A stretch of DNA of 64,000 nucleotides from Cyanidioschyzon merolae (Eukaryota), in the NCBI GenBank assembly GCA_000091205.1, contig AP006502.2. One strand, given 5' to 3'. The notes below the pieces were generated by a model. The model saw only the letters and a program-made list of their open reading frames with translations. It was not told where the DNA came from and ran no database searches. This document shows positions 1 to 26,556 of this stretch, one piece after another. Within the stretch, counting starts at the first letter, position 1; every line of letters begins with the position of its first letter. Both the position numbers and the translations under genes were made by a program.

Positions 1-2352
1 AAGTGTTTTTCGCAGTATAGAACGGAAGCGTTCAAAGAGCGTTCAAGAAATAAAAATAAAAAACTAAAAAAAGAAAAGTTATGAAAAAGCAAGTCCACGA
101 TCCTGGAGGCGCATTGGCGCCGGCTGCCAGAAAAAAAAAACAAAAAAACCGTACGGAATCCAGAAGAAAAGGAAGAGAGGAAGGACCGAAAGTGGGAGGC
201 CCTACGTTGAAGGCGGCAAGAAAGACAACTGTACGACGAGATGGTGGTGAAAGCCATTCATCTTGGACATATCAAGGATCCCTACAGGGGAAAGCTGCGA
301 GACGCTATCAAAAAGCGTGTCGACTCGTACTCCAAGAGTATTGTCAATGCGTCGTCGGGACTGATGTATTTGGCGAGGAAGATGTACGAAGACGTGAAGC
401 ACATGGAAACGGTCGAGATTCCAGACAAGTTTTTCGACAAGACGTTTATTCGTCACCTGATGCTTGGCACAGAGAAAGCGCGGATGGAAAATGAGCGGTT
501 GCATGTTCTCCACGAAAAACATCCCTTTTACAGCTTCAAGGGTACTCGAAACAAGGGTGACTGGGGTGTTTACGACTGCGGGTCGATGAAGTACATCACG
601 AATCTGAAGAACCATTTGACAACGAACCTCGAACGTTGCATGATACGCGCCGTATTTGCACTGTTCCCTGGCATCTCTCGCAGGAGGATATGGGCGATTG
701 TCAACGGCATCACGAATGATCGCAGGCATGAAGGTGAGGTCGAATTCGTCGACAGGAAGGCGTCAAAAGAGAGCACGAATGAAGCTTCTGTAATCCGTGC
801 GGTTATACAAGAGCACCGTGCAATCTTGGGGTTGGCAAATCCAACAGACAACATATCAGAGCTGAACAAAAGATAAGGAAAGATACTATCGCCTCGTCCG
901 GCGGTATATCGTGCTTCTGGACCGAGAGCTCGAACGCAAGGCAGAGATGAAGCTGAGCGAAGAGACAAATGACGAGTGGGAGAGATGGAAGGCGTTCCTA
1001 ATGGGTAAGCGCCTCAGCGTCGTTCCAATGTGCAACATCAAGTCACATTTTGCGAAAGTCGACCCCAACGCACATTACAGCAAAATGAAGGAGATCTGTC
1101 CGGAGGTCGATGTAAAGAAGACAGAGTTCACCGGTGAAAACCGGGAGACGTGCTGGAAGAATATCTTCGATTTCAAACGCCTCAAAGTCAGCAAACAAAA
1201 GGTATTTACTGGGTTGATCGAAACCGATGGAGTAGCCTTGTGTGTACACTATCGGCGGTTGAAGAGAGATCGTCCAGTTCCGCCCTCGGCTTCGCCCGTG
1301 ACGAAGGATGGAGATGAGAAGAAGGCGGATCCTGTGATGCAGGAGGTGTAGGATAACGCCTTTATGGTTGGCGCGGCGAAGCATGAAGAAAACAAGAAGG
1401 CGGGCCCTGAGACACAGAAAGTGCAGGATAACGATCTTGTCGTTGGCGCGGGCCCCGGGAATACGAATATCATAATTATCGCAGCACCGAAGCGTGCGGA
1501 AGATGGTACTGACAGCAACTTGCGTCAGAAAGACATGCGTCTTTTGAGGTTCTCGAGAGCGATATACTATCGAGAATCGGGTATAACGAATGCAAGGAAG
1601 AAAATTGGGACGTGGAATGCAGGAATGAAGGATCGCCTGGAAGCTTTGAGCGAGGTGACGAGCCGCGGAGCGGACTTTACAGCTTTTCGGAAATTCGTGG
1701 AAGATCGTGTTGCCCATTGAGATGCGCTGTGGGAGGAGTATACCAAGCCCGGTGGGCTCGTCTGCGATTGAATCTATACAGTGGGAGGCAGCGGGCGTTT
1801 GCCAATTTTTTCAATCAGCTGAGCGCCCTCAAGGAGGATGAAAATCAGAGGCTCGTAGTAGCGTACGGAGCAGGGCGATGGAAGACCCAAAAAGGGACTA
1901 CGCCAGCTCCAACGACAAGAACGTACAAGGAGTGTGCACGGCGTTTCGTTACGATACCAGTAGATGAGTTCCGAACATCGTATACACACCAAGAGTTGGG
2001 GTGTACACTTCAGAGAGTCGAGATGGAAAAGTGTCAGCGGAGCCCTGAGGAAATAGCAAAGTACGCACCGCTAACAGAAGAGCGAATGGAAAGAAGAGCG
2101 AAAGTTCGTGGACTACTTGCATTAGTGAGTACAACTCCCAACGGCATGAAACGCATGGAGTTTGTGAACCGTGACTTAAATGCCGCTATCAGTATAAGGA
2201 AATGTGCGGTGCTGGAGAACTGAACTCCAGAGTTGACACGAGAGAAAACTTTATTGGACAACCTCTCAAAGTGGAACTATATGAGAAACAGTTGGAAGCA
2301 GTAGTGGGTGGCCGGTCCAAGAAAACTGAGAGGCGTCTGCACGTCAGTTCAA
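1..2352 (+). mobile_element. TnpB/Fanzor-like transposon-associated element, copy 1. The left side runs off the window edge. The right end is inferred where homology to copy 2 stops, just after ...GTCTGCACGTCAGT.
   Basis: Homologous along its whole length to 24311..26553 at nucleotide and protein level. About 240 bp upstream of the first ATG are conserved in both copies. Confidence 0.6.
241..2223 (+). pseudogene. Fanzor/TnpB-like RuvC nuclease gene, decayed. Segments: ORF1 241..876, middle region 911..1351, RuvC region 1364..1720 and 1612..2223. Disrupted by an in-frame TGA and a 1-nt deletion at ~1715-1745, and by a premature stop plus frameshift at ~2219 before the conserved C-terminal tail.
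   Basis: Paralogous to the intact 309-aa ORF of copy 2. The RuvC-I-like motif here reads [16 protein letters not shown] where copy 2 has VVDADPGN. The C-terminal NRDLNAAISIRK matches the D-x-NAA-x-NI RuvC-III signature of TnpB/OrfB_IS605. A Cys/His cluster sits between them. A putative 36-nt GT..AG intron lies at 1346..1381. Confidence 0.6.
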
Positions 2353-2441
2353 GACGCTATGTCTAGGGCGCGGTTGCCGCCACTACTGTACACCGCTGGC
2401 GACAACGTTTTTCTTTCGAAAGGCGTTTGTTGTTGGCGGTG

Positions 2442-3773
2442 ATGGCGACTCTCACCCGAGCGTCTGTCCGCGTGCCCGTAGCGCAACAGGCGGAAGTTCT
2501 CAGAGCCAGCGAAAAAGATAAGCAAGTACGGAATGAGCTCGCACGGGCGCTGCAAAATATATGGCAAGGCGGCAGTATAGTCCTGGGCCGTTTCCTTCAC
2601 ATCCAGCGATTAAACCAACGCTGGTCGCGTGCACAGCGGGCCCCAAGTCGTGTGCCGTTGTCAACCGGGCAAGCGCAAGGAACGTCACGTTCTAGCACAC
2701 TGGGGAGTCTCCAGCAGCCGTGGGAGCCGCTTGGAGCACCACCGACAGCGTTTCGCTTTCTGAGTGACCTCGTCTTCTACTGGAGCACAGTGGGAATCGG
2801 TCGCCAAACACCCGGAGAAGAGTTTTGTGACCTTTTCGAGTGCACCATAGCTACCGGTGATCGCATCCAAGTGGCAACCCTATCTTGGAAACAGCGACTA
2901 TTGGAAACATTGCTCTATGCCACCATCGACTCTTTTCAGCTGCTTCTGTACTGGCTCCGGGTAGCACTGCGTCGAGTCGCCCGGTTCTTGGAGCGTGACT
3001 GGTACTCGCAATGTCTCTTGAGTCGCGAGAGACGCTGCCGAGTAGCCAGTACCTTACGTTTCGTAGACACTTGCTGCGCACGTCTGCAATTGCTACAAAG
3101 CTCCGATCGCCATGCACTGGCACTCACGATACAGTGGCTCATGCGTGTGCATCTTGCACTGTTCTATTTGTATGGGCGCTACTATGACCCAGCGAAGAGG
3201 CTTGCTGGTGTGCGTCTCGTGCATATTGGGCGGTCAAGGGCGTATTCACCTCGATATGATGCTCTAGGTCTTTTGCTCATCGTGCAGCTCGTCCTCGAAC
3301 CCATTGATGTGTTGATGCAGCGTCCAGCATGGAAGCGAAAGCTCCGCGTGCTTTTCAAATGGGCACTTGAGCTGTTTCGCAAAATGTATGCCAGTGTATC
3401 CACCTCGAAGCGAATCGCAGGTGATGGCGTCTCGCAGGCTCGGCCTCAGATGGTGACCGCTGTGCACACCACAGATCGATTCTCGGGCGAAGAAACCGGG
3501 CTTCCTGGCTCCAGAACGACAGATCAACAGCGGTCATGGTCTGTGGTATCGCCCAAATTCGAGCCTGTACCCACTGCAAGGCGAGCGCGAAACGAGTCGC
3601 GACACCGCTGCGTGCTCTGCTTGGATCAGTGCCAGGACCCCACATGTACTGCCTGTGGACACGTCTTCTGTTGGATCTGCATCCTGGACTGGGTGCGTCA
3701 GCAAAACTCTTGTCCAGTTTGTCGTCGAGAGGCACAGTTGAATGACTTACGTTGCCTCTACAGCCTCGGATGA
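2442..3773 (+). CDS. PEX10: Peroxisome biogenesis factor 10 (RING-type E3 peroxin). The ORF is open from 2427 (TTG); the first ATG is at 2442.
   Basis: The C-terminal C3HC4 RING CVLCLDQCQDPTCTACGHVFCWICILDWVRQQNSCPVCR closely resembles the PEX10 RING [25 protein letters not shown]...CPLCR. The N-terminal part is consistent with a Pex2/Pex12-type domain. Confidence 0.75.
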   Translation: MATLTRASVRVPVAQQAEVLRASEKDKQVRNELARALQNIWQGGSIVLGRFLHIQRLNQRWSRAQRAPSRVPLSTGQAQGTSRSSTLGSLQQPWEPLGAPPTAFRFLSDLVFYWSTVGIGRQTPGEEFCDLFECTIATGDRIQVATLSWKQRLLETLLYATIDSFQLLLYWLRVALRRVARFLERDWYSQCLLSRERRCRVASTLRFVDTCCARLQLLQSSDRHALALTIQWLMRVHLALFYLYGRYYDPAKRLAGVRLVHIGRSRAYSPRYDALGLLLIVQLVLEPIDVLMQRPAWKRKLRVLFKWALELFRKMYASVSTSKRIAGDGVSQARPQMVTAVHTTDRFSGEETGLPGSRTTDQQRSWSVVSPKFEPVPTARRARNESRHRCVLCLDQCQDPTCTACGHVFCWICILDWVRQQNSCPVCRREAQLNDLRCLYSLG

Positions 3774-4419
3774 ATTCATTGTATGCCTAAGCGTTCCGTG
3801 CTCGTCGGATCGCTGAAAACGCCCTAATATGACAGTGTCTAACCTGACGGTGATTGCACCCATGCCAGAATTGAGTGGAACAGGTCTTCCAATGTGGACG
3901 TAAACACGTACGAGAGGATCGATTCCAGTTGTCACCAACGCAAGCCATTGCAGGCGTTTTCTGCGACTGCTTCCTTTCTCTCTCTTGTATCGGGTATCAA
4001 GTACGTCGGTCTCCCACTGTCCCTCGAGCTACGTTGCCAGAAGTCGAAGGATGCTGGTAGCAAAATTAAATGAAGTCCCGATTACGCAGTTTCCGGTCGT
4101 TGTTGGCGCAATTCATGTACATGCGGGAGCTTCGATCTAAGCGCCGCATATTATTTTCATCTTCTTTGCGTGCTACCTCGGAACGCGCTTCGCCTGGATT
4201 TCGTCGGGTGTAACTAAGCGTGGACCACAGCGCTCCTCTAGGACTCGCCAAGTCAAGCGCAAAAGTGTACCTGATTGTTCAGCGCATTCTCTTGACGGGC
4301 ACAGAAGGCTGGCCTCGATGCCCGCTATGTTTCCGCGTCTGATGCCGTTCCGGAGATTGCAGGCTTCTGCAGAACAATTGCCGCAGCACGTACTCTGTCC
4401 GCTGTAGGTGCAAGCGCAC

Positions 4420-4620
4420 ACTCTTCCATTCAGCTGAGGTTTTGTGGAAGTCCATCGTATGCATGATGGGGCAAGTCGATCCATTCCGATCCTTTTATGC
4501 TCTTTCCAAAGCGATGACGCACGCTCCAGTGAACGCGATCATTGCGATGACTGAGGCCGAGTCTGGTTCGCTTTTCAATGAAACTAGTATCGTCGAAATT
4601 CTCTAAAGGCATACCCCGTG
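4420..4620 (-). repeat. Dispersed repeat family R, degenerate copy in inverted orientation.
   Basis: The plus strand at ~4490-4580 aligns to the reverse complement of 12070-12160 (...gatgacgcacgctccagtgaacgcgatcattgcgatgactgag...). It encodes a short peptide MTHAPVNAIIAMTE, matching the THAPLEAI-AMT motif of the other copies. Confidence 0.5.
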
Positions 4621-7188
4621 GAATGCATTACTCTGCTGCTCTCGGATGCCATTTGGTTGGCGATCTTATCGAAAACAGGTTTTCTTTGAACGACATCGAT
4701 TATTTGACTTGACGAATTCACGAAATGATCGGCATGAATTTGTGAGCAAGTCGTCGTGAGACAGCACCGAGATTTTTCCATTCCCGCCAAGGAAGCAGCG
4801 CGAATTGCGGCGTCTATGGGTCGCCCTGAAACAGGTAAATCAAAAAGATGAAGATTGCGTGATATGAACGTGCAACGTACAGGGAAAGGAAAGGAATAGA
4901 CTCTTGAACGCGAGAGTTGCATAATAATAACGGTCATGTCATGAAATCTGGTTCGAGAGCGAAGCGAATTAACTAGTGTCTGCTAAAGTAACAAATTCAA
5001 GCTGCGAGCAGTCGAAAAAGTCGCTCCGAAAGGACGCCGGAGAATCCTACAACCATCCATGAATCCGTATGCCCCAGTTGCGGCAGTCGGAATGACGAGA
5101 GTGTGTATCAGAAATGTTCGGAGAATACGTCGAATGGCAGAAACAGGGCGAGCACTTCAGTGTAACAATCTAACCCGACACGCTTACAGATGACGCGACG
5201 ACAATGGCCAAACTTGGTCTGATGCGCGCTTTCGTATTCATGGATATTCTACTCGAACCCTCTTTGCAATCCTTTTCCACCTCATGCGCGTCGGTACGCC
5301 GGCAAGCGTCCAGGCTGTGGAACGCATGCTCCCATTTTAGGTTCAAGCAGCATGCTTTGGGATGAAAACGCCCCCGTGAATCCATGATGAGCAGTAGAAT
5401 AGAAAACTGAATAAAGGGAATGGCTTTGGCTGCAGACCGAACGTCCGCTTGAAGAAACCCACATGGAATTGGTATACAGGCCCACGAAACGGAATTTTAT
5501 AGTGCAAAATCAAATATTCGAATCAGACTTCTCCCACGGCGTCGCTGCAGCAGTCTGTAATCAGGGACGAAACCACGGCAACTCCCCAGATCCGTCTGAG
5601 CTTCGACATCCCCACAAGAGGCTTGCCTTCCGAGACGGAATTTCGATCTATCCAGCATCGTCATATGCGCCGCCGCCGCTATGGCCGCTATCGCCTGCAG
5701 AGACATGATGGCGTTGTGGTGCTGTGAACTGCTTCAGCACGGAAAAACTGAATGGAATCATCCGGAAGCGAAAACAAGTTGCTACGTTCGTGCCGAGAGC
5801 GCCACTTGCAGTTTGAATACAGGCAACGCTTCTGATGATGTTTTGCTTGCGGCAACATGTGCCATAACCCCGGTACCACTGCAACGTGGGAGAAATGCTT
5901 CAAACTTGGACCCTTTCGAGACACGATCTCCGAACCCGTTTCGCCAGTTGAAAGTGGCTGTGCATCTTTTGGGCTCGAAGAAACATAGAGAGTCAAGAAG
6001 CTGCACTCTCCGTCGGCAAAGAGACGAACAAGACATGCATACGAGATCATAGACGTTGCATAGTCTGCAACATTGCTGCCTTCGTTGGGCCCAAGAGGCG
6101 AATCGCTGTATGGTCCGACACCGCAGTTGCCATTCGTTCAACGTTCTCTGCTAATGTTCTGGACGCTGCTCATTCGCTGTCTCTTTTAACCTGAGGCTCA
6201 CTCTAGAATAGGAACTGTACACGTGAGTTTCGAATACGAGGGGTATCCATCCGCAATCGCTCCCAAGGTTCTACAAGACAACTGGCAAGAAGAACCTAAT
6301 ACGTAACGTTCTTCCGGACAGCGTTCTTGCTCGGTGCAGTCAACGCCCGCTGTGCTACTATACTCTGTGACACGCAACGAATAAATAAATAGGCCTGAAA
6401 AGGCGATTTCTATTCTGGTGTCGTATGCAAGAACACGAGGCTCGTCTCGCAGCTGAGTATACCTCAGTGAACGATAGTCTCGCTGACGTCGATTCCAAGG
6501 ACAGCTTCACAACGGAGACGCCGTCTAGGTGCACAGGAAAAGCTTGTCCAGTGAGCCCATGGTGACAAGCTCCCCAGTTCGTCGTGGAATCAGTGACCAG
6601 CTGCGCTATGAAATAACCAGTCAGCAGCAAAGAGCCAAAGCGGTTACAAGTCCAGAGCCGAGTGCTCGAAATTGCTTGACAGGGTGCTCTCTCGTGCCTC
6701 TGCCTTCAAACGGCTCCTGCAGTCACTTAAAGTTAAGGAAGCAGACTGAGTGAGCTCCAAAAGCCGTGCGTGAGGCTCAGGGAACCGAAAGTACCCCATC
6801 AACCGAGACGCACCTCGTGCGCTACAGGCACCGGCTGTAGGAAAAGAAAACTTCGTTGAGCAACGTGCCTGCGCTAGGCAGTCAAGCGAGCAGGGAACTT
6901 TGCCGTCTCCACCTCTACCGCAGCCGCCGTACAGCAGCTTGCTCTATATGAACGCTACAAGATAGCTAGCGCGGAGTACCCATGCGCCAAGGTTGCCGCA
7001 GTGCCCCTCAAGGTCACCACCGGACTGCTCCGAGATGCCGGAGCAGCACGGGATTTCTTGCAGGCGCGCAGCGTACACGTTATCGCGTTGCTACCACTCC
7101 AGGGAAGGCTGTTTCAGGGCGGACTTGTAGACGGACCAGCACAGCTTTGAACTTGACAATCCCGTGAAGCAAAGGTGCGTTTGCGCCG

Positions 7189-7854: not shown

Positions 7855-10800
7855 GGAGACAATCGCACGCTGCAATATCTACAAGTAAGTCAGAAAGGCT
7901 GATGGATTTCAAATTTTTACTTTCCTGCACGAAGACTATATGAAAAACGTGCTCACCACTGCCGAGGAATGTCTTGAGAGAAGCTGTTTCGCGAAGCGCG
8001 CAGTAGGTGCTCGAAACGGGCTGTTGATGTCTTGTAGATGAAACCGGCAGCACATGGATCCGTTTTTGCAGGTCTCCGGAGAGTATCTGTGCAGTGCCAG
8101 TGCGCTAGTGCATCGTGCACACGGATACTCGTCGCTGTGTGATATATTCAGACTTGTGTGCTTCCACGAATCGCATCCTACTTATGTGTGCTCCGATTCT
8201 GTTCTCTGCCCGAGCTTGCACGATCGCACGTGCAAGCACTTGGCAGGGACACGTTTACAGCGAGTACACAAACTTGGTCTCGTTTGTGCGGAAGCGATCT
8301 CGGTAACTTCTGAGCGCGGCGCTCGAGTGCATAGAGGTCTGTTGCGCCGAGCAAGTGCTGCAGTCTCGAGGACAGCGCCCCCGGACTAGCACGGTCGTTC
8401 AAATAGCTGGTGTGTCGGCGAGTGTTGGTAGAGGACAGGTGACGCTTGCATGCCATGTTCGCCGCATTACACTTGGGAACTTGAAACGACGACACAGGTA
8501 CGTTGTTCTGCGGTCACGATCCCGATACGCTGATATAGGCCTGCTGGTTTTCCAAGTCTTTTTCAAAAGCATGTGCTCTAGAGCACGCTCCTTACCAGTA
8601 ACCGAACGGGAATCCCGGGGAGAGCCGCAAACGTTTCTGTTTTCTTCACTGTAAAGTCATGACCTCGTTATAATCAGAGCGTTAAATTTTGGAACATCTG
8701 TACCAGCACATTTTCTTGATTCGAATCGTTTCTCTTACAAGTATTCAACAGAAAGAATGTTTCATGTATGTTGGGGAAATGTGGCGGTAAGACCCGATGC
8801 TCGCACCGTCAGCTTGCGAGGAAATGGTCTCATGTGTTCAACTCACTCATTCTGGGGTCAGCAGGTAGATGAACTACCCTATTTGTTGTCACCACACAGA
8901 ACGTCTTGCGCTGAATAGCTAATTTCCCAAACCCTGTTTGTAAGGCAGTATCCTCGCCAATTCATTTTACTCTGGATGCTCTCCGAGAAATCGTGTTGAA
9001 AAAGCTACTGAATGTGAACATGGCATATTGTTGAGACGAACTCTGATAAAGAGACACGAATGGGCGAAGAAAGTATGCAAGCATCTCTGCAACTCCTTCG
9101 TGCAATGAAAAATACTCCACTGATATCGCACTGAAACACGAACGTGTAGTATATGAAGGACTCGTGCTCGTATCATTCTATCAGAACATATTTGGTACAA
9201 ATACTAGTCCTGGATACGGACGCCCAAAGAGGGGCAAAGCGCTATTCATAAAAAGATGAGATGAAGGACCCCATCCAGAACAGCACAGCTTCCTACTCGA
9301 TGGCGCCTCGCCCAGCTTTCCTCGCTTTGGTGTATCTCGTGAGGAACTATTCCTTGGGGTTCCAGGCGCAGGGCCCCCCGTCGTCCATATTTTTCAGTAA
9401 TCCTTCCATCAAACCTTTCGACGACAACACTGCCTATGTTCGGGACGAAATGTGCAATACGACCTTGTCGTAGAATCATTGATTTGCAGAAACACGTCCC
9501 AACATATCTCGACCTGTCGCCGCGCCACATCGTTGATCGGAATTTCCACTGCGCTCGTACCAGAAAGCCTCAAAACAACCACAAAGATTAGAAGCATATG
9601 CGGCCAATGACGAACGCTTCATGGGGTGCACTCTCTGGGTATTCTACCCATCGTAATCTCGCATTGGTGTTCCCGAAAACTGGGGACGTATGTAATGTAC
9701 TCATGGGCCAATTGATGAAGGCAAAAGACGAGCTGGAGCCGGAAGAAATCAAAGCGGTAGCGAGCTCCGAAGTGATGTCGCAAGAAGAGCGAGAATCACA
9801 TCAGATCGTCCAAGCAGCACGCGTTAATCTCGGCCTCGGACGGGCAGACGTCGCATCCAAAGGACAGTCGAACTGCCACAGATACCCAGCTTGCATCTTG
9901 CGCTATTACGTTTTCCTGAACAGAGCTTACCAGAGAGCAATGCAGACTCCCACCCCGAATCCGAATGCCTTAGCCTCCGAAAGCGTCTGTTCGTTGTCAT
10001 TCCCGTATGTCAGATAAAGGTCTATTCCGTCACCGTTTACAGTCGTGCACTGAACTGTATGGCCTTCTCAGAAAGCGACGGCCCGTCTCTGCGTAGAAGC
10101 ATGAAGGATTCGACCAATTGCGCGATGAGCAGCAGCAGAACACCTTCAAAGAATCTCATAGTTACAGAGGAAGTTGAAAGCTGTTCACACGTAAAATGGA
10201 TCGATGAAAAGTCAGTCTGTATGTAATTGATGAAAGCTTGGCCTGAATTGAGCGACGAGTTTCATTTTCAAACATTCAAGGTAGATGAAGAGGTGAAATC
10301 CGTTTCGGATATGGATCACGGATTGAAGGGCATCATGGCCGTCGCCATACCTTCAAGTCAAATGGATGGAGATACAGGGCAGAACTGAAAGCAGATGAAT
10401 TAACAAGACTGTTCCATTGCTCAGCGTCATAGAGATTTGGGGTTGATGGACACAAAGAGACGTACCAACATTTAGAATCAGGGCGTCCGGACCGTCCTCG
10501 ACGAATTGAGCACTGTCTAGAGCAGCAAAATGCGCCGCACGCTGCATTTAGAGCGCACATGATTTTCCAAATGGTCTAAGCGAATGAGCTTTGGCAGGAG
10601 TACTTGCGACCACGTCTGTGTAGCCAGCATTTTGGGTTGTATGGAGATATCACGTGTTCCTGAACATGTTCAATGATTTAGAGAATGATGTGACCCATAC
10701 GCGCCGTCTTTCGGTAGTAGGCTCAGGCTCTGAATGTACAGACGCGTGCGGCAGCCGTACGCCTTCTCCTTCGACGACAGCATACAAAGAGTGCAAAAAT

Positions 10801-11989
10801 CGATTTTGTGCGATTCTAATCGATAATTCCAGTTGCGACTTTAGCGTACAGTGGGCACTCGTGCCCGCTGATACAAGCGGGGAAGTAGAGAATGAAACAG
10901 AGGCGAATACAAGAGATGATGCTCGGTACGCTGACCAGACGTCAAATGGCGAGGGAATCGAAGGCAAGAGACAGGGTGTGATGTGATCTCACCAGCAACC
11001 GAGCGGAAAAGCACTCTCTGTAGCCGCATTTTAGCAGCTCGATCAATGTCCGGAAATACCTCGTGCTTCTTGAGCATCTAGCGGCGCTGCGTCTAGCAAA
11101 GTTTCAAGGGAGTCTTTTCGCACTCTATTCGGCATTGTGCTAAAACGTTGAAGTGCTCGAAGTGAACTATCAGTTCCCAAGCGAGATCGCATTCGAATCC
11201 CGCCCGAAGCAGGGTCCTGATACATGGCGGTTCAATAATCCAGAACGGCTGGGGCGCCTTTTACGTACACCGGGCACAATTTTTACGTGCTGTTGGCATA
11301 CGACTATGATGTTCCACGACTTGAAATTACTGAGTATATTCTTAATCGCTCGTAAAAGCACATGGTTCGTTAACGAAGGTGAGCCCCTTCCCCAGGGCTC
11401 GCCCGTGCAGGACAAACACGCGCGAGCGAACGCCACGCTCTACTCAGTTCAAAATGGAGTACTGAACTGCTCGCTCTTTTCCTGCAATTGGATCTTTTCC
11501 AGAACTATTTTCTGAATGAGCAGCCCCAAAATTCGAAGTACAGCAATGAGCGCCTACGGATTTACAGCTAGTTCAAGGAAGCTCCGTCGTTGGTTCCTAC
11601 TGGTTCCTTTGAAGCTCTGCCACTGGAATTCGGTGCTTCAACGAAAGTAAGATGATCGATTCGCCACTACCTCGAGCACGAGCTCCCAATACAATCGACA
11701 TTAGCATTCAATTCACACGCTCTAGCCTAGACTACTGCACTTTCCTTGCACATCCCATGCTCAAATCTACGATTCTTCTTGAATCTTCGACCATTCTGTG
11801 CCAAAGCAGCTCGTGGGCACTGCGCTTGGCACCGCTGGATTGAATACCAAAAAATCAAGTACTTTCATTGGGGACTTCTTCACAGGCGCATTCCGAAACT
11901 GCACTGAATATGCGACGCCAAATAATCGATTCCACTTAAAGGACAAATCCATCGCTGTTTGTGAGCATTCAGAGAACCGCATTCGACAG

Positions 11990-12350
11990 CAGCATGGCAT
12001 CAAGTACGGATTGTATGCTCCCTGAGGCCCCCATCTCTCCTGTTTGAATGGAAAAGTGTCTTCGACTCCGACTTGAGTCATCGGAGCGATCGCTTCCAGT
12101 GGAGCATGCGTCACGGCTTTGCATATAGGCGTATACACAGACAGAGAATTCTCGAGTTGTTTTGCAGCCTGGATTTTCCTTCCGGTGTATTCTTCATCAA
12201 GGACAAGACGGTACTCCGCAAATCATCTAGTAACTTGAATAGGATGCGCTTGCGTGTGCAGCAGGCAGCGTACCCGCCGAAAGGATCGCGCTGCTGTTGC
12301 CCGTGATCGTTGGTAACCGCAACAGGCGCGGAATCGGAGGCCAGCATCGA
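11990..12350 (-). repeat. Dispersed repeat family R copy. Minus-strand ORFs 12111..12347 and 11767..12138 carry the conserved THAPLEAIAPMTQV and GK-x-LQ segments.
   Basis: About 300 nt align at roughly 65-75% identity with 30040..30350 and with the 46830..47050 / 49550..49770 segments. Contains a GCGATCGC palindrome. Confidence 0.55.
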
Positions 12351-12966
12351 GCGGAGCCTCCTGTACCCGCCACAGGCACATGTGCCGGGCGATGGAGCAG
12401 GCGTTCACGCGCATCAGGGACGTCCCCGGAGGACGGATGTGCTCGACATGTGGGAACACCAAACACAGTCAAGTGTCACCGCTGCGATGAGCGCACCGAT
12501 GCTATATCAAGTGAAGATCCTGATGGCAAGCGACCAAAATTTGTCGGCGCTGCCTGAGCATGAATTGCGTCGTTAACAGCTGGAAGCAAAGAAATCGGTA
12601 CATGAACGCTGCCATCGCCATGCCCGGTTTTGTGACAAGTCAGCTTCAGGAACTAGAGAGTCCGACGTTTTGAGCCAGAGATACGAGAGCGAAACGGGTA
12701 ACAGTCGCAGCAGAAGCGAGTACAGGCGAGTGTTGATGACAGTGCGCGGAGACTCCAACCTCTTGTGTGCAGGCCCGAGTTAAGGACGTGAACCTGTCCC
12801 ACCATAGTCCGGTAGGGGTAGAGCACGGACGCAAGGACGTGCGTTCGTGGCAAGCAGGTTGGGCGTCTCGTCGAACGGTGCAAGTCTGCCGCGCGGAACG
12901 AGTGCGACCATTTCCAAGCGCCTCTTCCTTGCCGTTTCCCGCGAACGTCGTACGCGGGACGGCTGC

Positions 12967-12971
12967 CAAAA
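12967..12971 (-). terminator. Pol III oligo-T terminator (T5) immediately downstream of tRNA-Pro.
   Basis: ctgTTTTTgg on the tRNA strand, 14 nt after the discriminator base. Confidence 0.5.
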
Positions 12972-12984
12972 ACAGAATCGAACA

Positions 12985-13071
12985 GGGACTCACGGGGACT
13001 TGAACCCCGGACCTCTCGCACGTTCTTCGGTAACTCCCGAAGCGAGCATTCTACCCCTGAACTATGAGTCC
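12985..13071 (-). tRNA. tRNA-Pro (anticodon CGG) with a 15-nt intron 3' of anticodon position 37.
   Basis: The reverse complement folds as a cloverleaf. Acceptor GGACTCA/TGAGTCC, D arm GTTC-AGGGGTA-GAAT, anticodon stem CTCGC/GCGAG, T arm CGGGG-TTCAAGT-CCCCG, discriminator C. The loop is TTCGGG + intron AGTTACCGAAGAACG + T. The intron CCGAAG pairs with the anticodon-loop CTTCGG. A run of T5 follows the 3' end. Confidence 0.8.
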
Positions 13072-13807
13072 CGTTTGTTGCTGGCGCCTGCGATCCACCT
13101 GCATCAGCACATCGCGACCGCCGAACTGTAGCAATTATTTGCGATATTCTATATATAAATGGTTGCGCTACGAGCGATGGCGATTGCGCGCGATTTTTTG
13201 CGACACATGTGTATATTAAGGACAGATTCATGGGTGATGCTTACGGTATTTCACCTCAACGGGGTTCCACTCGCAGATGCGTGGAATCAAGAGTGGTTTC
13301 GTGCTTAACAGCAACCACGTTCGAAGCGCGTTCATTAGAAGAAATAGAAAACCCAAGGGAAAGAATCGTCATCGAAGCGGCGGATCGAAGAGGGTCGGTG
13401 TCGTCGGGGTTTGACAAGGAAACGAAATAATCCTCTCCTCGCCGACCATCGAGCAAGGGAGAGCTACTGACGAAGAAAAAGAATAGTGGGGATTGGCGAG
13501 CAAAACTTGTTCGCCGTAGAGGACGATGATGAGACTAGAGTGGCACAGAGGGCAAGTGTTTGAGAAATCCCTGGACTGATGCATTGTACCAGAGGCATTA
13601 AAGTCAAGGAGTTCATGAACAGTTACTTGAACGCCGAACGCAATATTACACGATGTAAGATGCTGAAGACGAGAACCGTGGAGCTGACGCGAGCATTTTT
13701 GGGGCGCAACCTCTCAGGCTCGAAGTGTACAAAGAGAAACTGAAAACGATTGCAGGACGCTGGTCGAAAAAGGCTGGCAGCCGTCTGCGGGCGGATATCA
13801 ATTTACC

Positions 13808-16348: not shown

Positions 16349-16545
16349 CCGCTGTGAGTGTCGTGCTCGTACTCCAACAGTTGATCACGTCCTCTGTAAG
16401 TAATACTCAAGATTCTTCCCCGAAGAAAATCATGAACAGAGCGCTGATCACTGGACGTTAGAAACTTGATCTTGTCAGTAAGCAGGGACGTGCGTAGAGC
16501 CTATCGCGCTCTGCTAGGGTACGGAATTCTCGGCAGACGCCCCGA

Positions 16546-16700
16546 TCAGATGATGGCGTCGATACCCTGAGACACCCACATGTCCATATTGTCGCATTTA
16601 TTGTTCGAGGCCAGGCCGCCGTCGATGCTTGTACCATGGGCGAAGACCGCCTCAGCGGTATCGCGAATTCGGTGATCCCCGGTTCGTGTAAGAGAGACGC
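16546..16700 (-). CDS. Possible 3' exon or fragment of a short-chain dehydrogenase/reductase-like gene (uncertain).
   Basis: The minus-strand translation ...TAEAVFAHGTSIDGGLASNNK...* resembles an SDR C-terminus (G-x-x-hxVDGG). No continuous upstream ORF, so either intron-containing or degenerate. Confidence 0.25.
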
Positions 16701-19500: not shown

Positions 19501-20660
19501 AGCGCAGCGTCGCTTTCCCACGGCGAATCGCTCCTCTTGCATAATGAAGAACTGCACGACACAGAATGCTTTCGCACAGAACAGCTTCTGGAAAACCGAC
19601 TCCATGCGATGGAGTCAGACACTTTCGTTATTCCCTAAAATACAGGGTTTGCAACTATGTCATGCGTTATCCATCCGAGCTCGTTTCTGGGTCATGGAGC
19701 CGAATCCTGCCCGTGTATTCACCACATACCCGAGACAAGTGCCGTCAGCGCTAGCTCCCGGATGCTAACGAACCACGGATTGTTGGCGCGTTTCATTGCT
19801 CACAAAGGAAGCCCGTCAGCAGATGATGCCCGATGCGTATCGAAAGCGCCTCGTCCATCCCGGCCTGTGTCGAAATCGATTCGCATATTGTGCCATTAGC
19901 AGAGCAGTTTCCGCTGCCCACTTCCCCGACAAACATGCTCCGTAATGAGGCAGATGTGCGTGCATCGCTAGCGACTCGAGCGCGTCTCGCAGCTTTCGCT
20001 GTCCACACATCAACAAGGCGCCCCAGCACCGGGGCTGCTCCGCAGGTCACCACAGGGCTCTGCGGTCGCTTGTGGAACCCTTGTTCTGAACCTCGCTTCC
20101 ATTGAAACCACAGCGAGCACCCGAAAATACCCAAAACATTTCACAAATGAATAGAGGTCCGCGGCGATAGTGTCACCGCCAGGTCGCTACGAGTAGAAGC
20201 GGCTACGCTGCAACACAAGCGAGACTCCGTCGAGAGCTGCACGCCACGGCCCTGAGGAAATAGTCGGAGACAGACGCCACTAACAGGCACTTCGAATACT
20301 GGAAATCTTGTCGATCCATGCCACATTTACGCCTAGAAAACATCAGAAGCAGTTAACGAGTGAGCACATGGTATGTAACCGGTGCTTGGTGCTTGCACGC
20401 GTTTCGCCTGTATGTTGCAGTGAAGCGCGGCAACGCCGTGCGTGCATCCAACTGCTAATTCTGATCAGTCTCTATGAGACGCTTCCAGGCGAGGCCTATG
20501 TTGCATCCCGTAGGGCGCCCCGCTGGATGCCATGAATGCCGACGCGTGAACGTCCCTGAATCCAGCCCGAGGGCTTCGTCTGCACCTACCGTTTTGATCC
20601 AGAAGAACCCTGGACACATTCTCGAGTGCGGCATCGGAACCAAGATCCGACTGCGCCGCG

Positions 20661-21119
20661 TCAGAATACTATAGAACACTGGGCTGCTCGCTCTGTTCCT
20701 GCCTTGCGATATGTTTCCAAACCTTTTCGATATACAGTCTCGACATTCACATTGTGGTAAGCGCGGATGACGGATTCATGTGCAATGCTAGGATTCATGG
20801 TCATGTTTTCGAAGTGGCTGATTCGGCGCTTTGCAGCTGGGATTCGTTCTGTAACCAGAATCGTGATGAGCCGCAAACCCATCGAACACGAGTTCCTAAA
20901 ATAACCGATATCGTTCGCCAATACATATGTTTGTGCATCCATGCTCCTGCTCTCCGCATATATAGCATGCTCGGATACAGCATTCTTCAACTGTTCGATC
21001 TTTCCGTTCCGTGGTAACTTTTGGGAAGCAGGTAGCAGTGCGCAACATTGTGTAGAGGTGAAAGTATACTCGACTTGGTCGCTGGACGACATCCGCACAA
21101 GCGTATCTGGAAAGTTCAT
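20661..21119 (-). CDS. Hypothetical protein (152 aa, ATG start), no recognisable domain.
   Basis: ORF only. Confidence 0.2.
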   Translation of the reverse strand: MNFPDTLVRMSSSDQVEYTFTSTQCCALLPASQKLPRNGKIEQLKNAVSEHAIYAESRSMDAQTYVLANDIGYFRNSCSMGLRLITILVTERIPAAKRRISHFENMTMNPSIAHESVIRAYHNVNVETVYRKGLETYRKAGTERAAQCSIVF

Positions 21120-22146
21120 TCACTGACCTTGTCACGGCACATGAAAGACTCCTTTCGAAAGTCAAATATGCCTCTCTTCGGCGCCAGCGACGAACCGGCA
21201 TTCGGCAGAAGCATTGTACCGCTAGGGCACGATGCTCTTAAAGGATTTCGCCTTCCCCATTTCCATGAAACATGGTCTTGGACTCGGAGCCCAGTCGTCT
21301 CTCCCATCGCTGCTAGTGTAGAATGCGCCACTGTTTAGAAGAAGAGTGCGTTGATGGATGGAAGTTTCTTGACTTTTCATGCAGCATGGATATTCAGTGT
21401 GGTACTTGTGCCATCATGCACATCAACGTGTCCCGCAGATCCTCTATCGACTGGAAGAAAGTGCGCTTGTAAATGCAGCGGATAGCGTACTCGGGGCAGG
21501 TATCGCGCCGAAGAAGCCTGTGAGCTTCGGTATGGAACCGGGCACGGAAACGGTGCAGGACACCGAGGCGAGCCTTCTGTGCCCGTCATAGGCGTGCGCC
21601 GAATGATAAACCAAAAGCTCGCGTGCCACAGGGCGACTCTCTCAGAGAATAGGGTGCGATGGACCTAAATGAGTACCTGACTATATTCAAGTGTGATAGC
21701 TGCGAATAACGCACCGAGGCTGCATGCATAGGAGATGACAATGGAAAGCGATGCCTAGATATCAACTACTGTCTGTGCATCAAATGCAGCGACAAAAGCC
21801 GGAAGCAGCGAAATCAGGAACTGAACGCAGCCACCAACAACGTTCGAATCGTGACAACGGAGCTGAAGACAAGGGCAGACCGACGAACGTAAAGCCGGAG
21901 ATAAGACAAAGGAAAACGAAGCCGTCCCAGATAAAGCTCGCAAAGGCTGGTCGTCATGACATGAGGAAAAGACCCAAACTTTACGGTGTACGCTCGTGTT
22001 CGCAAAGTGGGCCCGCTCCATTTCATTCTGATAGGGGTGCAAGCGACCTCTGGTCCAGACCTGAGGCAGATGCGCGCGATTGCCAGACTGCGTCTCATGA
22101 ACGCAGCGTATTGACTGTGGACGTCAGCGCACGTCAAGCTCCGCTC

Positions 22147-23769
22147 TTAAGACGGAGAACGCTCCCAGCTCTGGCTGGGTATTCGGTCCGAACGCAGATA
22201 GAAGACGCTCGTCACGTACCGCTCGTGATACCTTCGCGTGAGGACGTACTTGTGCACATGGCGCACATTTGCGGATACCCCGCTGGGAACTATGTACAAA
22301 TGGTTCAGGGTCACTGTAACAGGTCTTGGAGGGAACAAATCAACCTCGCCCCGCTCTCGTCGCAACTGTTCTTCTATGAATTCGTTTGGAGTCATCTCAA
22401 TTGGCAAGCGAGGAGCCGTTTCCTCGCCAAGCAGGACAGGCAGCGGCGGTGGCTCACGATGAAAGCCCGACTCGATACCTGGAATTGCGTTATCATAGCT
22501 GCCAACAGGGCTCTGTTCCCGCCGGAAGACCTCGCTCGCGCGCTTCGTTCCAGGCAAGAAATCATCCTGTACCAGAAACTCGCCAAAGAAAGGTTCCACC
22601 CGAATGAAGTTGTTCACATTACCGTGGGCATCCCGAGCGACCATTTGCTCGGGCGCATACCGCCACTCGCCGTCTACAACATACTTGTACTGATAGTCAC
22701 CAGGTTCTAGATTAAGGAGAATGTAAAAGGCGTTCCCGCTCCGATGCAGTGGATGACGCCGCTTCCACCCGTCAAAGGAGCCCGCGACTTCCACACCCGC
22801 AACGGCGCCGTGGTGCCAGTTGAATGCCACTGGAACCAGGTTCCGCTGCGGGACTTCTAGGAGCTCCATTTCAGCCAGCTTGGTTTCGGTATCCTCGAGC
22901 TGTGGTGTGTGCACGACGCCGTGGTCCACAGAGCGCCTTGGTGGCACCTCGGCGCCTCCGTGCTCTCTCGAATCACTGCCTAACGCAGGAGGAAGTTGCA
23001 TGGCGCTCGGCAGAGGAGGCGGCCCCGAGGCAGACGCTTTCGCTTGGAGGGCGTTTTCACTCATTCCAGAGGTTTCTGGCACAGCCCAGCCCGGAGCGGC
23101 TCTTGGTACCCCACCACTAAAGTAGGACTCCATGCCCAGGCTTGCGGGACTGTGCGGGCTGAGCCTCGGGCTTATTGCCGCAGGCGCGGCGCCTACGGAG
23201 GCCGCAGCAGCGAGTGCCGCAGCACTCCGCTCCGACAGCGCTGCTGAGCCCCGTGTGAGGACTCGCGAGGCCGCGGCGGGTGCCCCTGGACCACCCTCTC
23301 GAGAGAACGAGTGTCCCATAACGCCAGCAACGGCAACTCCAACGTTGCCAAAACCGTTGTTGCTGCGGGACGCACCCGTGCCTCCAAGGAACAACGTTGT
23401 CAGTCGCGCGCGATTGGCGTCTTGGTAGGAACGTTCAAAGGAGTCGGATGCCGGCAGGTGATTCCCTTTTCGATGACAAAACGTTTCCATGAACCATGGA
23501 TCCCAGTTTGCGGAATGGGTATTCGTAATCGAAAAAAAAGGTTCATCATGCGGCAACAACCTGCATGTTCCATGAACCAGATATCCTCTCGGATACACTG
23601 GTCGTTTCGTGCGCTCTATCGTGTGCCAGTTGTCTGCCTGGCTGCACTCGCAATAGCAGTCATACCGCTGGAGCAGATGCAGCACGGAGACAGAACCGCT
23701 TTTCCATACCACTGAGGGCTTCGACTCGATGCTTGGTTCATCCGAGACCGGGTCGGAGTACATAATCAT
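22147..23769 (-). CDS. AMPK/SNF1 kinase beta subunit (CBM48 glycogen-binding domain plus ASC domain). The ORF is open from 23784 (TTG); the first ATG is at 23769.
   Basis: VPVAFNWHHGAVAGVEVAGSFDGWKRRHPLHRSGNAFYILLNLEPGDYQYKYVVDGEWRYAPEQ matches the AMPK-beta GBD. C-terminal ...TLNHLYIVPSGVSANVRHVHKYVLTRRYHERYVTSVFY matches the ASC domain. A long Ala/Pro-rich linker separates them. Confidence 0.8.
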   Translation of the reverse strand: MIMYSDPVSDEPSIESKPSVVWKSGSVSVLHLLQRYDCYCECSQADNWHTIERTKRPVYPRGYLVHGTCRLLPHDEPFFSITNTHSANWDPWFMETFCHRKGNHLPASDSFERSYQDANRARLTTLFLGGTGASRSNNGFGNVGVAVAGVMGHSFSREGGPGAPAAASRVLTRGSAALSERSAAALAAAASVGAAPAAISPRLSPHSPASLGMESYFSGGVPRAAPGWAVPETSGMSENALQAKASASGPPPLPSAMQLPPALGSDSREHGGAEVPPRRSVDHGVVHTPQLEDTETKLAEMELLEVPQRNLVPVAFNWHHGAVAGVEVAGSFDGWKRRHPLHRSGNAFYILLNLEPGDYQYKYVVDGEWRYAPEQMVARDAHGNVNNFIRVEPFFGEFLVQDDFLPGTKRASEVFRREQSPVGSYDNAIPGIESGFHREPPPLPVLLGEETAPRLPIEMTPNEFIEEQLRRERGEVDLFPPRPVTVTLNHLYIVPSGVSANVRHVHKYVLTRRYHERYVTSVFYLRSDRIPSQSWERSPS

Positions 23770-24310
23770 TCTGGGGGTCAGCAAGCTGCTCAGAGAGGCT
23801 TACTTTCTGCGACTGCGCGAATCGACATGCAAGGAGACCACTGCGACCAGGGCGATGCCCAGACCCAGCATACCCAATTCGTGTCCCAGAATAGATTGCG
23901 TTGCGGACGGCTGCCCTGATCTCACGAAAGGACCCACCACTGGGAGGCGCATGAAGCACGAGTCTGGCGGACTTGTCCGGCTCGCGGGACCTTCCGCCTA
24001 AAGGATGAATTTTCGACAATATGGAAACCGCTCTCCCCTTTTAACGTGTTTCGCAGAGAAGGAAAGAAATTTTTATCCAGTTGCAAGGTTAGAGGTTAGT
24101 CTCTGTCCATGTTTGTGTATAGCGCGGTTGATACGCGCACCTTGAGATCCAGCAGGCGTGAGATCCGACGTGCATCTCGCCCTTGAAGGGAAACGCGATC
24201 CTAATCAATAGCACGTTGGTATGACGTACAGGTTGTATTTGCATTGCATGTATCTCATTTTATAGTCTTTCAATTCAATGCTTTTTCAACCATCACGTTG
24301 GTATATTCAT

Positions 24311-26553
24311 GTGATTTCTCGCGGTTTCTAACTGAAGCGTTCAAAGTGCTCTCGTGCTAAAAAATAAAAAAAGAAATTCATGGAAATAGAAGTGGAGGAC
24401 CCTTGAGGCCTTATGTCGTCGGCTGCCGGAAAAAACGGAAAAGAGTCCCGAGCCACGTGGAGCATGGGAAGATGTAGAAGCAAAAGAATGAGGTCCGACG
24501 CCAAAGGCTGCGAGAAAGACGAAATTACGACGAGATGTCGGTGAAAGCCTGTCTCCCTAAACATATCAAGGATCCGTACAAGGAAAAGTTGCGAGAGGCC
24601 ATCAGAAACCGTGTCGCGTCGTACTTGACCAATGCTCGTCACGCATCTTTAGGATTGATGTATATGGCGAAGGAGATGTATCGCGACGTGATGGAAATCA
24701 AAATATTCGAGCTTCCGGACGAATGTTCCGACAAGACCTTTATTCGTCATCTGATGCTTGGCACAGAGGAAACGTCGAGAAGAAACGAGCGAGTGCATGC
24801 CCTCCACGAAAAATATCCCTTCTACATCTTCCACGGTACTCGATACAGGATAAGAGTGATATTTACGAAATCGGGGCGAAGAAATACCTCACGAACCTGA
24901 AGAACCATTTGACAATGAACCTCGAACGTTTCATGATACGTGCCGTGCTTGCATTCTACCCGGGCATGTCTCGGCAATGAATATGAGCGATTATCAATGG
25001 CATAACGAACAATCGCAAGCATGAACAGGAGATCGAATTCGTCGACAAGAAGACACCATGCAGGAAAAGGTGTAAAACTTCTGTAATCCGTGCGGCGATT
25101 CAAGAGCGCCGTCCGGTACTGGGGCTGCTCAACCCATCAGAAAAAGTAGCAGATATGGGAAAAACATTATTCTCTCATCCTGCGCTATTTCGTGTTTTTG
25201 GACCGAGAACTCGAACGCAAGGCCGAGATGAAGCTCCGTGTGGGAAAAAACGAAGAGTCGGAGAAACGGAAGGCTGCGCTTCTGAGGAAGCGCTCCAACG
25301 CCGTTGCGCAATGCGGCGTCAAGTCACACATTTTGACAATCGACTCCAGAGCCCTTTTCCGCATCACGAAGGAGATAAGTCCGGAGTTCGATATAAGCAG
25401 GGACGAATTTATGGATGAAAACCGAGTAACTCGTTGGAAGAATATCTTCGATTTCAAACTCCTCAGAACGAGCGCGCAAAAAGTATTCACGGGAACGATC
25501 GAAAGCGATGGGGTATCCACGTGTGTTCACTACGGGCACCTGAAAGTGTATGATCCTTTTCCATCTTCCATATGACCCTCGGCGAAGCATGAAGAGAAGA
25601 AGGAGGCAGATCTTGCGAGGCAGAAAGTGCAGAAGAACGACTTTGTGGTTGACGCGGACCCCGGAAACACGAACATCATAACCATCGCAGTACCCAAGCG
25701 TGCGGAAGATGACATTCACGGTAGCTTACGTCGGAAAAACATGCGTCTTTTGAGGTTCTCGACAGCAAGATACTATCGAGAATCCGGTATGATGAATGCG
25801 AGGAAGAAAATCGAGACATGGAATGCAGGAGTGAAGGATCACCTGGAAGCTATGCGCAAGGTGACGAGCTGCGGAGCAGACTTTCGAGCTTTTCGGGAGT
25901 TCATGGAAACTCGTGCTGCCCATAACGAGAAGCTTTCGAACGAATATGCCAGGCCCCGGTGGGCTCGTCTGCGAATGAACCTGCTCTGTGGGAAGCAGCG
26001 TGCATTCGCCAAATTCTTGAATCAGTTGAGCCCCCTCAAAGAAAACAAGATCCAAAGGCTCGTAAAGGCATATAGAGCACGACGCGAGGCGTCAGGAGAA
26101 GGCAGCACACCAGCGCCATCGACGAGAACGTACAAGGAATGCGCACACCGTTTTGTCACAATACCGATAGACGAGTTCCGAGCGTCATACGTCCACCATG
26201 ATCTGGGGTGCACAATCCAGAGAGTCGAGATGGAAAGGTGCCAGCGAATTCGTGAGGATATCAAAAACTTCGGAGCGCTGACGGAACAACAAATGGAAAG
26301 GAGGGCACAAGTTCGGGGATTTCTTGCAGTGGTGAGTTCCATCTCGGGCAAAAAACGCATGGAGTTCGTGCACCAAAACATAAACGCCGCTTTCAATATC
26401 AGGAGATGTGCAGTGATGGAGAAGAGATCTCCGCATCTGGCGCGAGCCAACTTTATGGGGCAGCCTCTCAGGGTTAAAGTGTACGAGGAGAAGTTGAAGC
26501 CAGTAACAGGCGGCCGGTCCAAAAAGCCTGGGAGGCGTCTCCACGTCAGTGTA
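24311..26553 (+). mobile_element. TnpB/Fanzor-like transposon-associated element, copy 2. Both ends are inferred from where homology to copy 1 stops.
   Basis: Collinear with 1..2352. The conserved upstream block ...gaagcgttcaaag... begins near 24311. The conserved 3' block ...GGCGGCCGGTCCAAAAAGCCTGGGAGGCGTCTCCACGTCAGT ends at ~26553. Confidence 0.65.
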
Positions 26554-26556
26554 TAG
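24535..26556 (+). pseudogene. Fanzor/TnpB-like nuclease gene, copy 2. The N-terminal region is disrupted by a 1-nt deletion at ~24890 and two in-frame TGA codons at ~24972-24980. The downstream half is intact.
   Basis: ORF1 homolog is split across frames (24535..24900 and 24723..24980). The middle region 25192..25575 and the RuvC region 25627..26556 are open. Putative introns at 25116..25149 and 25546..25587. Confidence 0.6.
25627..26556 (+). CDS. Longest intact ORF of the Fanzor/TnpB-like gene: the RuvC nuclease half (309 aa; open in frame from ~25588).
   Basis: RuvC-I-like FVVDADPGNTNIITIAV, a Cys/His cluster (KECAHRF...HHDLGCTIQRVEMERCQR), and a C-terminal MEFVHQNINAAFNIRR motif. This last motif has N where copy 1 has the Asp of R-D-L-NAA. 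C-terminal tail GGRSKKPGRRLHVSV. Confidence 0.65.
   Translation: MQKNDFVVDADPGNTNIITIAVPKRAEDDIHGSLRRKNMRLLRFSTARYYRESGMMNARKKIETWNAGVKDHLEAMRKVTSCGADFRAFREFMETRAAHNEKLSNEYARPRWARLRMNLLCGKQRAFAKFLNQLSPLKENKIQRLVKAYRARREASGEGSTPAPSTRTYKECAHRFVTIPIDEFRASYVHHDLGCTIQRVEMERCQRIREDIKNFGALTEQQMERRAQVRGFLAVVSSISGKKRMEFVHQNINAAFNIRRCAVMEKRSPHLARANFMGQPLRVKVYEEKLKPVTGGRSKKPGRRLHVSV

Follow-up and report, generated by a model that had tools for sequence, protein, structure and literature searches.

We analyzed a 64,000-nucleotide stretch of DNA from Cyanidioschyzon merolae (contig AP006502.2; hereafter the window), which carries two diverged copies of a transposon-like element whose predicted product belongs, on the evidence presented below, to the Fanzor1 family. 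The window is nuclear DNA of C. merolae 10D: three of its open reading frames (ORFs) that start with ATG, encoding an arsenite methyltransferase (BAM83055), an NADP-GAPDH (BAM83063), and an RB-like protein (BAM83066), are identical to proteins of this strain, which bears out the eukaryotic nuclear, intron-poor context assumed in a preliminary description made from the sequence. Copy 1 occupies positions 1–2441 on the plus strand; the window begins inside it, so part of its 5′ side is lacking, but it reaches an intact 3′ terminus. Copy 2 occupies positions 23460–26550 on the same strand (∼3.08 kb); it has a complete 5′ end but no 3′ tail. When the copies were compared by blastn, positions 6–1376 and 24315–25657 were found to be collinear and 71% identical, and positions 1374–2348 and 25580–26550 collinear and 76% identical. 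The preliminary description had recognized the two collinear, diverged copies, but it had put their identity at 65–70% and their boundaries at 1 to ∼2352 and ∼24311 to ∼26553, and neither set of figures holds: copy 1 runs to 2441, and copy 2 runs from 23455–23465 to 26550.

The boundaries were placed by comparison with relatives drawn from metagenome contigs (L- loci for DNA, P- proteins for their products). Genes of eukaryotic type (SMC, AMPK-beta, SURF6, and a DEAD_2 helicase) lie on these contigs, and because one of them (L001) is 98%–99% identical to the window, we infer that they come from related Cyanidiales. Family copies are ∼70%–86% identical to one another. Copy 1 is collinear with copy 2 and with independent copies in L004, L005, L007, and L009, and its identity to the full-length L004 copy is 84%–86%. 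Its 3′ end was set from 47 independent ends that finish ...GGTG. The 5′ boundary of copy 2 is sharp, at window position ∼23455–23467 (...TTTTCGATGACAAAACGTTTCC...), and is common to 16 independent loci, so that the element ends can be given at base level (5′ ...TTTTCGATGACAAAACG... and 3′ ...GGTG). The similarity of copy 2 to other copies stops at 26550, without a 3′ tail. An ortholog of copy 2 that is 98%–99% identical is present in contigs L001 and L002; the insertions long predate the divergence of the strains.

The coding sequence begins at an ATG that is common to both copies (position 241 in copy 1 and 24535 in copy 2). In copy 1, the ORF remnant (241–2366, plus strand) ends at a natural TAG stop (2364–2366) and, after frameshift correction, yields a conceptual protein of 705 amino acids (aa) rather than the ∼670 aa estimated at first. 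It is interrupted by frameshifts near 868, 1750, and 2237 and by in-frame stops at 1349, 1718, and 2221. The RuvC-I motif (1439–1471, plus strand) has Gly in place of the catalytic Asp (codon 1451–1453); the family consensus at this site is GADPGNTNI, and its Asp is invariant in an alignment of 13 diverse family members that includes distant ones (alignment A3). The rearranged RuvC-II region (1861–1980, plus strand) consists of AYGAGR (1861–1878), in which Gly sits at the position of the canonical RuvC-II Glu, and of DEFRTS (1963–1980), which supplies an alternative Glu, and the RuvC-III motif RDLNAA (2170–2187, plus strand) retains its Asp. In copy 2 (ORF remnants at 24535–26556, plus strand), the N-terminal half is split by frameshifts (tblastn high-scoring segment pairs in frames 1, 3, and 1), and a C-terminal ORF of 309 aa (25627–26556) is still open. 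This part, likewise on the plus strand, keeps the RuvC-I Asp (VVDADPGNTNI, 25645–25677) and the alternative RuvC-II Glu motif (DEFRAS, 26170–26187), and its RuvC-III motif reads QNINAA (26374–26391), with Asn for the catalytic Asp (codon 26377–26379). The motifs thus lie where they had been located previously, with the qualification that the Asp of D-x-NAA survives only in copy 1 and that of DxDPG only in copy 2. Judged from these lesions, both window copies are pseudogenes and neither is predicted to be functional: copy 1 because of its three frameshifts, three premature stops, and RuvC-I substitution, and copy 2 because of its fragmented N-terminal half, its RuvC-III substitution, and the absence of the 3′ tail.

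Two 75 bp tandem units, detected as offset self-matches, lie just before RuvC-I of copy 1 (1297–1451, plus strand). They encode a 25-aa acidic/basic repeat (KHEExKKEAGPxxQxVxDNDxVV), which is present in ∼1–2 units in the window copies and in 4–6 units in P0003, P0121, and P0126; the corresponding tandem zone of the L004 copy lies at 6146–6450. In an AlphaFold2 model of P0121, this linker (residues 373–471) is modelled as disordered, with a predicted local distance difference test (pLDDT) value of ∼21. The protein also has K/R-rich segments before a conserved VVK motif (KKNRK...RRRRQERQ; KKRPDR..KKAKR in relatives), which on inspection may or may not amount to an N-terminal nuclear localization signal; indels have scrambled the reading frames that precede ATG 241.

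A search of a large protein database returned more than 200 unnamed homologs. With the full conceptual protein of copy 1 as the query, it returned P0121, a full-length relative of 752 aa that is 71% identical to this protein, and a graded series of homologs that extended down to 23% identity. The most distant members, P0145 and P0146, exceed the gathering score of PF07282 (OrfB_Zn_ribbon, the Pfam Cas12f1-like/TnpB TNB domain), which is 26.3 bits; they score 30.0 and 29.3 bits, respectively. A profile built from A3 matched only Fanzor1 chains among the PDB sequences (PpFz1, 2e-23; SpuFz1, 9.2e-17; GtFz1, 1e-3). In the profile alignment, DEFRTS falls on IDEFRTSSFC of PpFz1 and LDEYKTSSVC of SpuFz1, and NRDxNAA falls on the WNRDQAA and WNRDM motifs of the solved Fanzor1 proteins. 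The A3-invariant residues, D484 (DPG), Y622 and G623 (AYG), E656, and D725, N727, A728, and A729 (RDxNAA), comprise the conserved RuvC-I and RuvC-III Asp residues (D484 and D725), of which each window copy has lost one, and DPG, the relocated Glu of DE(F/H), and RDxNAA remain invariant down to ∼24% identity. E656 lies in DEFRTS, 33 residues past AYG in P0121. In Fanzors, Gly or Pro stands where the canonical RuvC-II Glu would be, and an alternative conserved Glu is found "approximately 45" residues downstream (Jiang et al., PMC10530073). At the level of sequence, the rearranged RuvC-II of the family matches this published pattern.

The AlphaFold2 model of P0121 (pLDDT, 71; predicted template modelling score, 0.66) gave the same assignment when it was compared with the PDB by Foldseek. 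The top seven matches were all Fanzor1 structures (SpuFz, PpFz, and GtFz; E values from 8e-17 to 4e-13), with a template modelling (TM) score normalized to the target of 0.68–0.70 for SpuFz. The next match was Cas12o, at an E value of 1.8e-3, and Cas12f likewise appeared only at E > 1e-3. Because the sequence profile and the predicted fold agree independently, assignment of the encoded protein to Fanzor1 is supported. The checks proposed with the preliminary description, namely, profile comparison, structure prediction, and a search for further copies, therefore came out in its favor: direct scans returned nothing, but the diverse A3 profile matched solved Fanzor1 and nothing else, the model (made for the full-length relative P0121) has a RuvC-containing Fanzor1 fold, and many further copies with defined ends were found in metagenome contigs.

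In P0013, P0016, P0030, P0121, and other relatives, the WED/REC part carries the Pfam tag PF26935 (DUF8286), which co-occurs with PF07282 in P0145 and P0146; DUF8286 appears to be a Fanzor1 domain that has so far not been annotated as one.

The preliminary description had suggested that the two copies diverged under coding constraint and decayed afterward. We calculated ratios of nonsynonymous to synonymous substitution (dN/dS) by the Nei-Gojobori method, using the same alignment read in the two wrong frames as controls. Between copies 1 and 2, dN/dS was 0.28 for the C-terminal half (dS, 0.70; controls, 1.26 and 1.55) and 0.65 for the N-terminal part (controls, 0.79–0.90), so constraint is clear in the C-terminal half and weak in the N-terminal part. 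The C-terminal value indicates that the two lineages diverged as working genes. When the 309-codon ORF of copy 2 was compared with its L001 ortholog (98.5% nucleotide identity), dN/dS was 1.06 (3 synonymous and 11 nonsynonymous changes), which indicates that copy 2 has been neutral since its insertion; the adjacent dead part of copy 2 is as similar to L001 (98.8%) as the ORF. These substitution patterns show purifying selection during the divergence of the lineages, followed by neutral decay.

Downstream of the stop codon, ∼75–90 nt of noncoding sequence is conserved in five of six independent copies. In copy 1, this tail comprises 75 nt (2367–2441, plus strand) and contains a 16-nt anchor (CGCCACTACTGTACAC, 2378–2393) and, at 2391–2441 on the sense strand, a terminal hairpin of ∼50 nt with a 23-bp stem. 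A scan of the metagenome contigs with the anchor found 120 loci, 73 of which are family 3′ ends, and 47 of these are nonredundant. In every subfamily, a long hairpin directly follows the anchor and similarity ends beyond it, with many copies ending in ...GGTG. The 2340–2441 segment of copy 1 folds at −43 kcal/mol (z = −3.99; none of 200 shuffles was as good), and its reverse complement folds at −30.1 kcal/mol (z = −1.73). In a register-free test across the 47 ends, mean energies were −15.6 for the sense strand, −9.0 for the antisense strand (Wilcoxon p = 8e-9), and −8.9 for the adjacent flank (p = 2e-7), p values that overstate the independence of the ends, which are related by descent. G.U pairs account for 24% of the hairpin pairs. 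The hairpin arms differ between subfamilies yet still pair (CGTT...GATG in one and GCC...GGC in another), and the inner stem is invariant in the only subfamily that aligns cleanly. Known Fanzor guide RNAs derive from the 3′ noncoding region that abuts the right end and can overlap the end of the ORF (PMC10530073, PMC10432273). Given this origin and the position and structure of the tail, the tail is a reasonable candidate for an omega-RNA scaffold, a right-end signal, or both, which is plausible by analogy.

A separate observation concerns L088 (reverse strand), in which the anchor occurs twice (572–587 and 621–636): the 49-nt terminal module of anchor and hairpin is duplicated in tandem, giving two consecutive right ends.

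Exactly one Fanzor1 family, CMe-1A, has been described in C. merolae (Bao & Jurka 2013, Mobile DNA 4:12; PMC3627910). It comprises ∼150 copies, each ∼80% identical to a ∼3 kb consensus; it has no terminal inverted repeats (TIRs), and its target-site duplications (TSDs) were given as undetermined. Its 5′ 635 bp are 95% identical to a separate repeat, TE-N2_CMe, of which there are ∼70 copies, and some copies of CMe-1A are intact, which the authors took as a hint that the protein has a role in transposition (PMC3627910). The window elements share the species, the Fanzor1 protein, the length of ∼3 kb (2.6–3.2 kb in five full-length copies), and the lack of a transposase gene. The ends of these five copies showed no TIR above the level of shuffled sequence and no obvious TSD, and a search for an empty site that would define TSDs yielded none, the sole candidate (L013) carrying an element with a mutated anchor. 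Copy 2 begins with a TE-N2_CMe-like 5′ module of ∼640 bp (23460–24106, plus strand) that, like the 5′ 635 bp of the published family, also occurs as solo copies: six loci (L035, L048, L056, L085, L039, and L128) match from ∼23467 to 23860–24106. We found no contradiction between the window elements and the published description. The elements are thus very probably two old, inactivated insertions of CMe-1A, a Fanzor1-carrying, transposase-less nuclear repeat family of C. merolae. Base-level ends, the ∼50-nt sense-strand terminal hairpin, alternative 5′ ends, and the lesions of both copies go beyond what was published. The 5′ ends differ between subfamilies, because many other copies can be aligned only from window position ∼24123–24137 onward.

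Several results weigh against this assignment. Searches of the window ORF fragments against Pfam, NCBIfam, and PDB sequences (the last by phmmer) gave no relevant match, a profile of 27 close relatives had no match in the PDB, and nothing was found when long close relatives were scanned against Pfam; the link to Fanzor1 needs distant family members or structure. In the CMe-1A clade of A3, H, L, L, and S stand where the solved Fanzor1 proteins have their four zinc-ribbon Cys residues, so the Cys/His cluster noted in the preliminary description is a relic of a zinc ribbon. The replacement explains why PF07282 has no match on CMe-1A proteins; the cysteines are kept in P0145 and P0146, the ribbon region is still modelled in P0121 (pLDDT, ∼65–89), and their absence looks like a clade-specific loss. 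An Rfam scan of copy 1 gave no match, and when 37 3′ ends were aligned with MAFFT, RNAalifold predicted no pairs, a null result that arises because subfamilies carry the hairpin in different registers. The role proposed for the tail comes from analogy. Finally, the case for CMe-1A is built on the species, the class of the protein, the length of the copies, and the 5′ module, each compared with the published description.

At least four copies or fragments of the CMe-1A-type Fanzor1 family are present in the window. A third, heavily decayed copy lies at 9388–10845 (plus strand; 25%–32% aa identity to P0121 by tblastn), and a remnant of the C-terminal coding end lies at 13531–13787 (plus strand; blastn and tblastn similarity). 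The latter is the probable 3′ end of the former; the ∼2.7 kb that separate them (10845–13531) may be a later insertion. A further copy (45258–46071, plus strand) has an apparent internal deletion: its beginning (45258–45323) matches the start of the common core (L004 4680–4745, ∼24128–24193 of the window), and it retains the last ∼95 codons (45790–46071). This derivative resembles the ORF-less "ghost loci" of SpuFz1 elements (PMC10432273).

Fragments that resemble part of the 5′ module were seen at 47946–48138 (minus strand), 38323–38398 (minus strand), and 23559–23745 of the window. In L004, 5′-module sequence (3402–3696) lies ∼1 kb upstream of the core, which indicates that module and core are not always contiguous. 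L007 and L008 have an insertion of ∼3 kb (399–3424) that interrupts sequence contiguous in L004 (4265–4699) just upstream of the core; the opposite strand of this insertion encodes a reverse transcriptase (PF00078). A long AMPK-beta-like ORF (22147–23784, minus strand), which was listed mechanically in the window and also called on L001, overlaps the 5′ module of copy 2 by ∼300 nt (23460–23784); the N-terminal extension that this gives is unlikely to be genuine coding sequence. Another dispersed repeat (∼64%–70% identity) was found at 21404–21982, with matches at 3943–4476 (minus strand), 30608–30811, and 40235–40422 (minus strand), and it is also present in many of the metagenome loci examined.

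Taken together, the copies point to an ancestral element of ∼3 kb that consisted of a ∼640 bp 5′ module, a ∼430 bp leader, a single intron-less ORF of ∼700–750 aa, and a ∼75-nt tail ending in the ∼50-nt sense-strand hairpin. The ORF encoded a basic N terminus, a WED/REC part (DUF8286), the variable linker of 25-aa repeats, a RuvC domain with the relocated RuvC-II Glu, and a zinc ribbon without cysteines. If an intact copy worked as characterized Fanzor and TnpB systems do, transcription would run through its 3′ end, the last part of the ORF together with the tail would make up the omega-RNA scaffold, and the guide would come from the flanking DNA. The resulting ribonucleoprotein would then cut matching DNA beside a target-adjacent motif. 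The element has no gene besides Fanzor1, and its ends are asymmetric, with a structured 3′ terminus on the sense strand. One could go further and suppose that the terminal hairpin is more than an omega-RNA scaffold, being the only cis-acting mobility signal of the element, and that the transposase-less spread to ∼150 copies, with the nuclease under purifying selection, proceeded by way of a single-stranded DNA or RNA intermediate or by nuclease-driven copying. This idea, which we regard as speculative and rather unlikely, is prompted by the lack of TIRs, TSDs, and transposase, by the alternative 5′ ends combined with a fixed, structured 3′ end, and by the dN/dS of 0.28 between lineages. If it were true, Fanzor1 would be needed for its own spread and would not be a passenger.

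The relatives of the elements come from metagenome samples that also contain prokaryotes, and their motif arrangement is one that TnpB has in common with Fanzors, so we considered whether they might be bacterial or archaeal TnpB insertions of the IS200/IS605 type, brought in through contamination or recent horizontal transfer. The flanks hold genes of the C. merolae nucleus whose products match the reference proteome exactly, however, and other copies adjoin the eukaryotic genes named above. Both by sequence and by fold, the closest matches are Fanzor1, with no TnpB among the matches and Cas12 far lower, the prokaryotic naming models of NCBIfam find nothing, and a ∼700-aa protein with a basic N terminus is what is seen in Fanzor1. 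We give this origin practically no credence; the elements are best taken as eukaryotic Fanzor1 insertions.

Survival of function at one or both loci is a different matter. Some copies of CMe-1A are reported to be intact (PMC3627910), and copy 1 keeps its structured 3′ tail, so at least one window copy could in principle still work as an RNA-guided nuclease locus if frameshifting, editing, or an unrecognized intron restored its product. This would oblige copy 1 to undergo three frame changes and read-through of three stops while having Gly in RuvC-I, and it would oblige copy 2 to undergo several frame changes with Asn in RuvC-III and the tail lost; moreover, the frame offsets differ between the copies, so there is no conserved programmed shift. 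We consider a working locus extremely improbable. Scarcely more credible is the proposal that the 309-aa ORF of copy 2 (25627–26556) has been domesticated as a host gene for a RuvC-half protein with a cellular function. The window and two related metagenome contigs all have this ORF open, with 96% aa identity, but at 1.5% divergence an open frame of 309 codons would be expected to survive by chance. The dN/dS against the ortholog and the equal similarity of the flanking dead part also argue against domestication, as do the Asn at the catalytic RuvC-III position and the start of the ORF, a GTG inside the linker that leaves out the entire WED/REC half.

RNA-guided cleavage by Fanzor proteins was shown in 2023. 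The identification of a eukaryotic TnpB/Fanzor-type gene in decayed transposon-like elements was correct, as the A3 profile and the fold match to Fanzor1 attest, and the further suggestion of a candidate programmable nuclease applies to the family but not to the window loci, neither of which could encode an active nuclease. As a discovery this carries little weight, since the family is known and not new, Fanzor1 in C. merolae having been published in 2013, and since both loci are pseudogenes. C. merolae is acidothermophilic and genetically tractable, and its genome is tiny and well assembled; these traits would make an intact CMe-1A Fanzor1 with a defined tail a convenient, possibly heat-tolerant system in which to study a transposase-less Fanzor element in its native host. 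For such work, the ends defined at base level, together with the conserved hairpin at the terminus, offer, by analogy, a concrete candidate for the omega-RNA or right end of CMe-1A.

CMe-1A resembles TnpB of IS200/IS605 elements (such as ISDra2) in having a single RuvC nuclease, no TIRs, and a structured right end, and, by analogy, its guide RNA would be expected to come from the 3′ end of the element and to overlap the end of the ORF. It differs from TnpB in that it has no TnpA (Y1/HUH) partner, its protein is ∼300 aa longer, its RuvC-II Glu is relocated, and its host is a eukaryotic nucleus, and no TnpB was found among the PDB sequence and fold matches. The resemblance to the solved Fanzor1 proteins SpuFz1, PpFz1, and GtFz1 (PDB 8GKH and 9CEU–9CF3) extends over the whole length of the fold (TM scores of 0.68–0.70 to SpuFz1) and includes the RuvC-I DPG motif, the relocated Glu in (D/I/L)DE(F/Y)(R/K)TS, the NRD motif of RuvC-III, the multicopy transposon context in a eukaryotic nucleus, and the structured 3′ noncoding region at the right end. 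In contrast to these proteins, to which it is only ∼14% identical, CMe-1A Fanzor1 has a variable 25-aa tandem-repeat linker before RuvC-I, and its clade has lost the CxxC...CxxxxC ribbon cysteines. The omega-RNA of SpuFz1 comes from the 3′ inverted repeat, whereas CMe-1A, whose nuclease activity is predicted, ends without inverted repeats.

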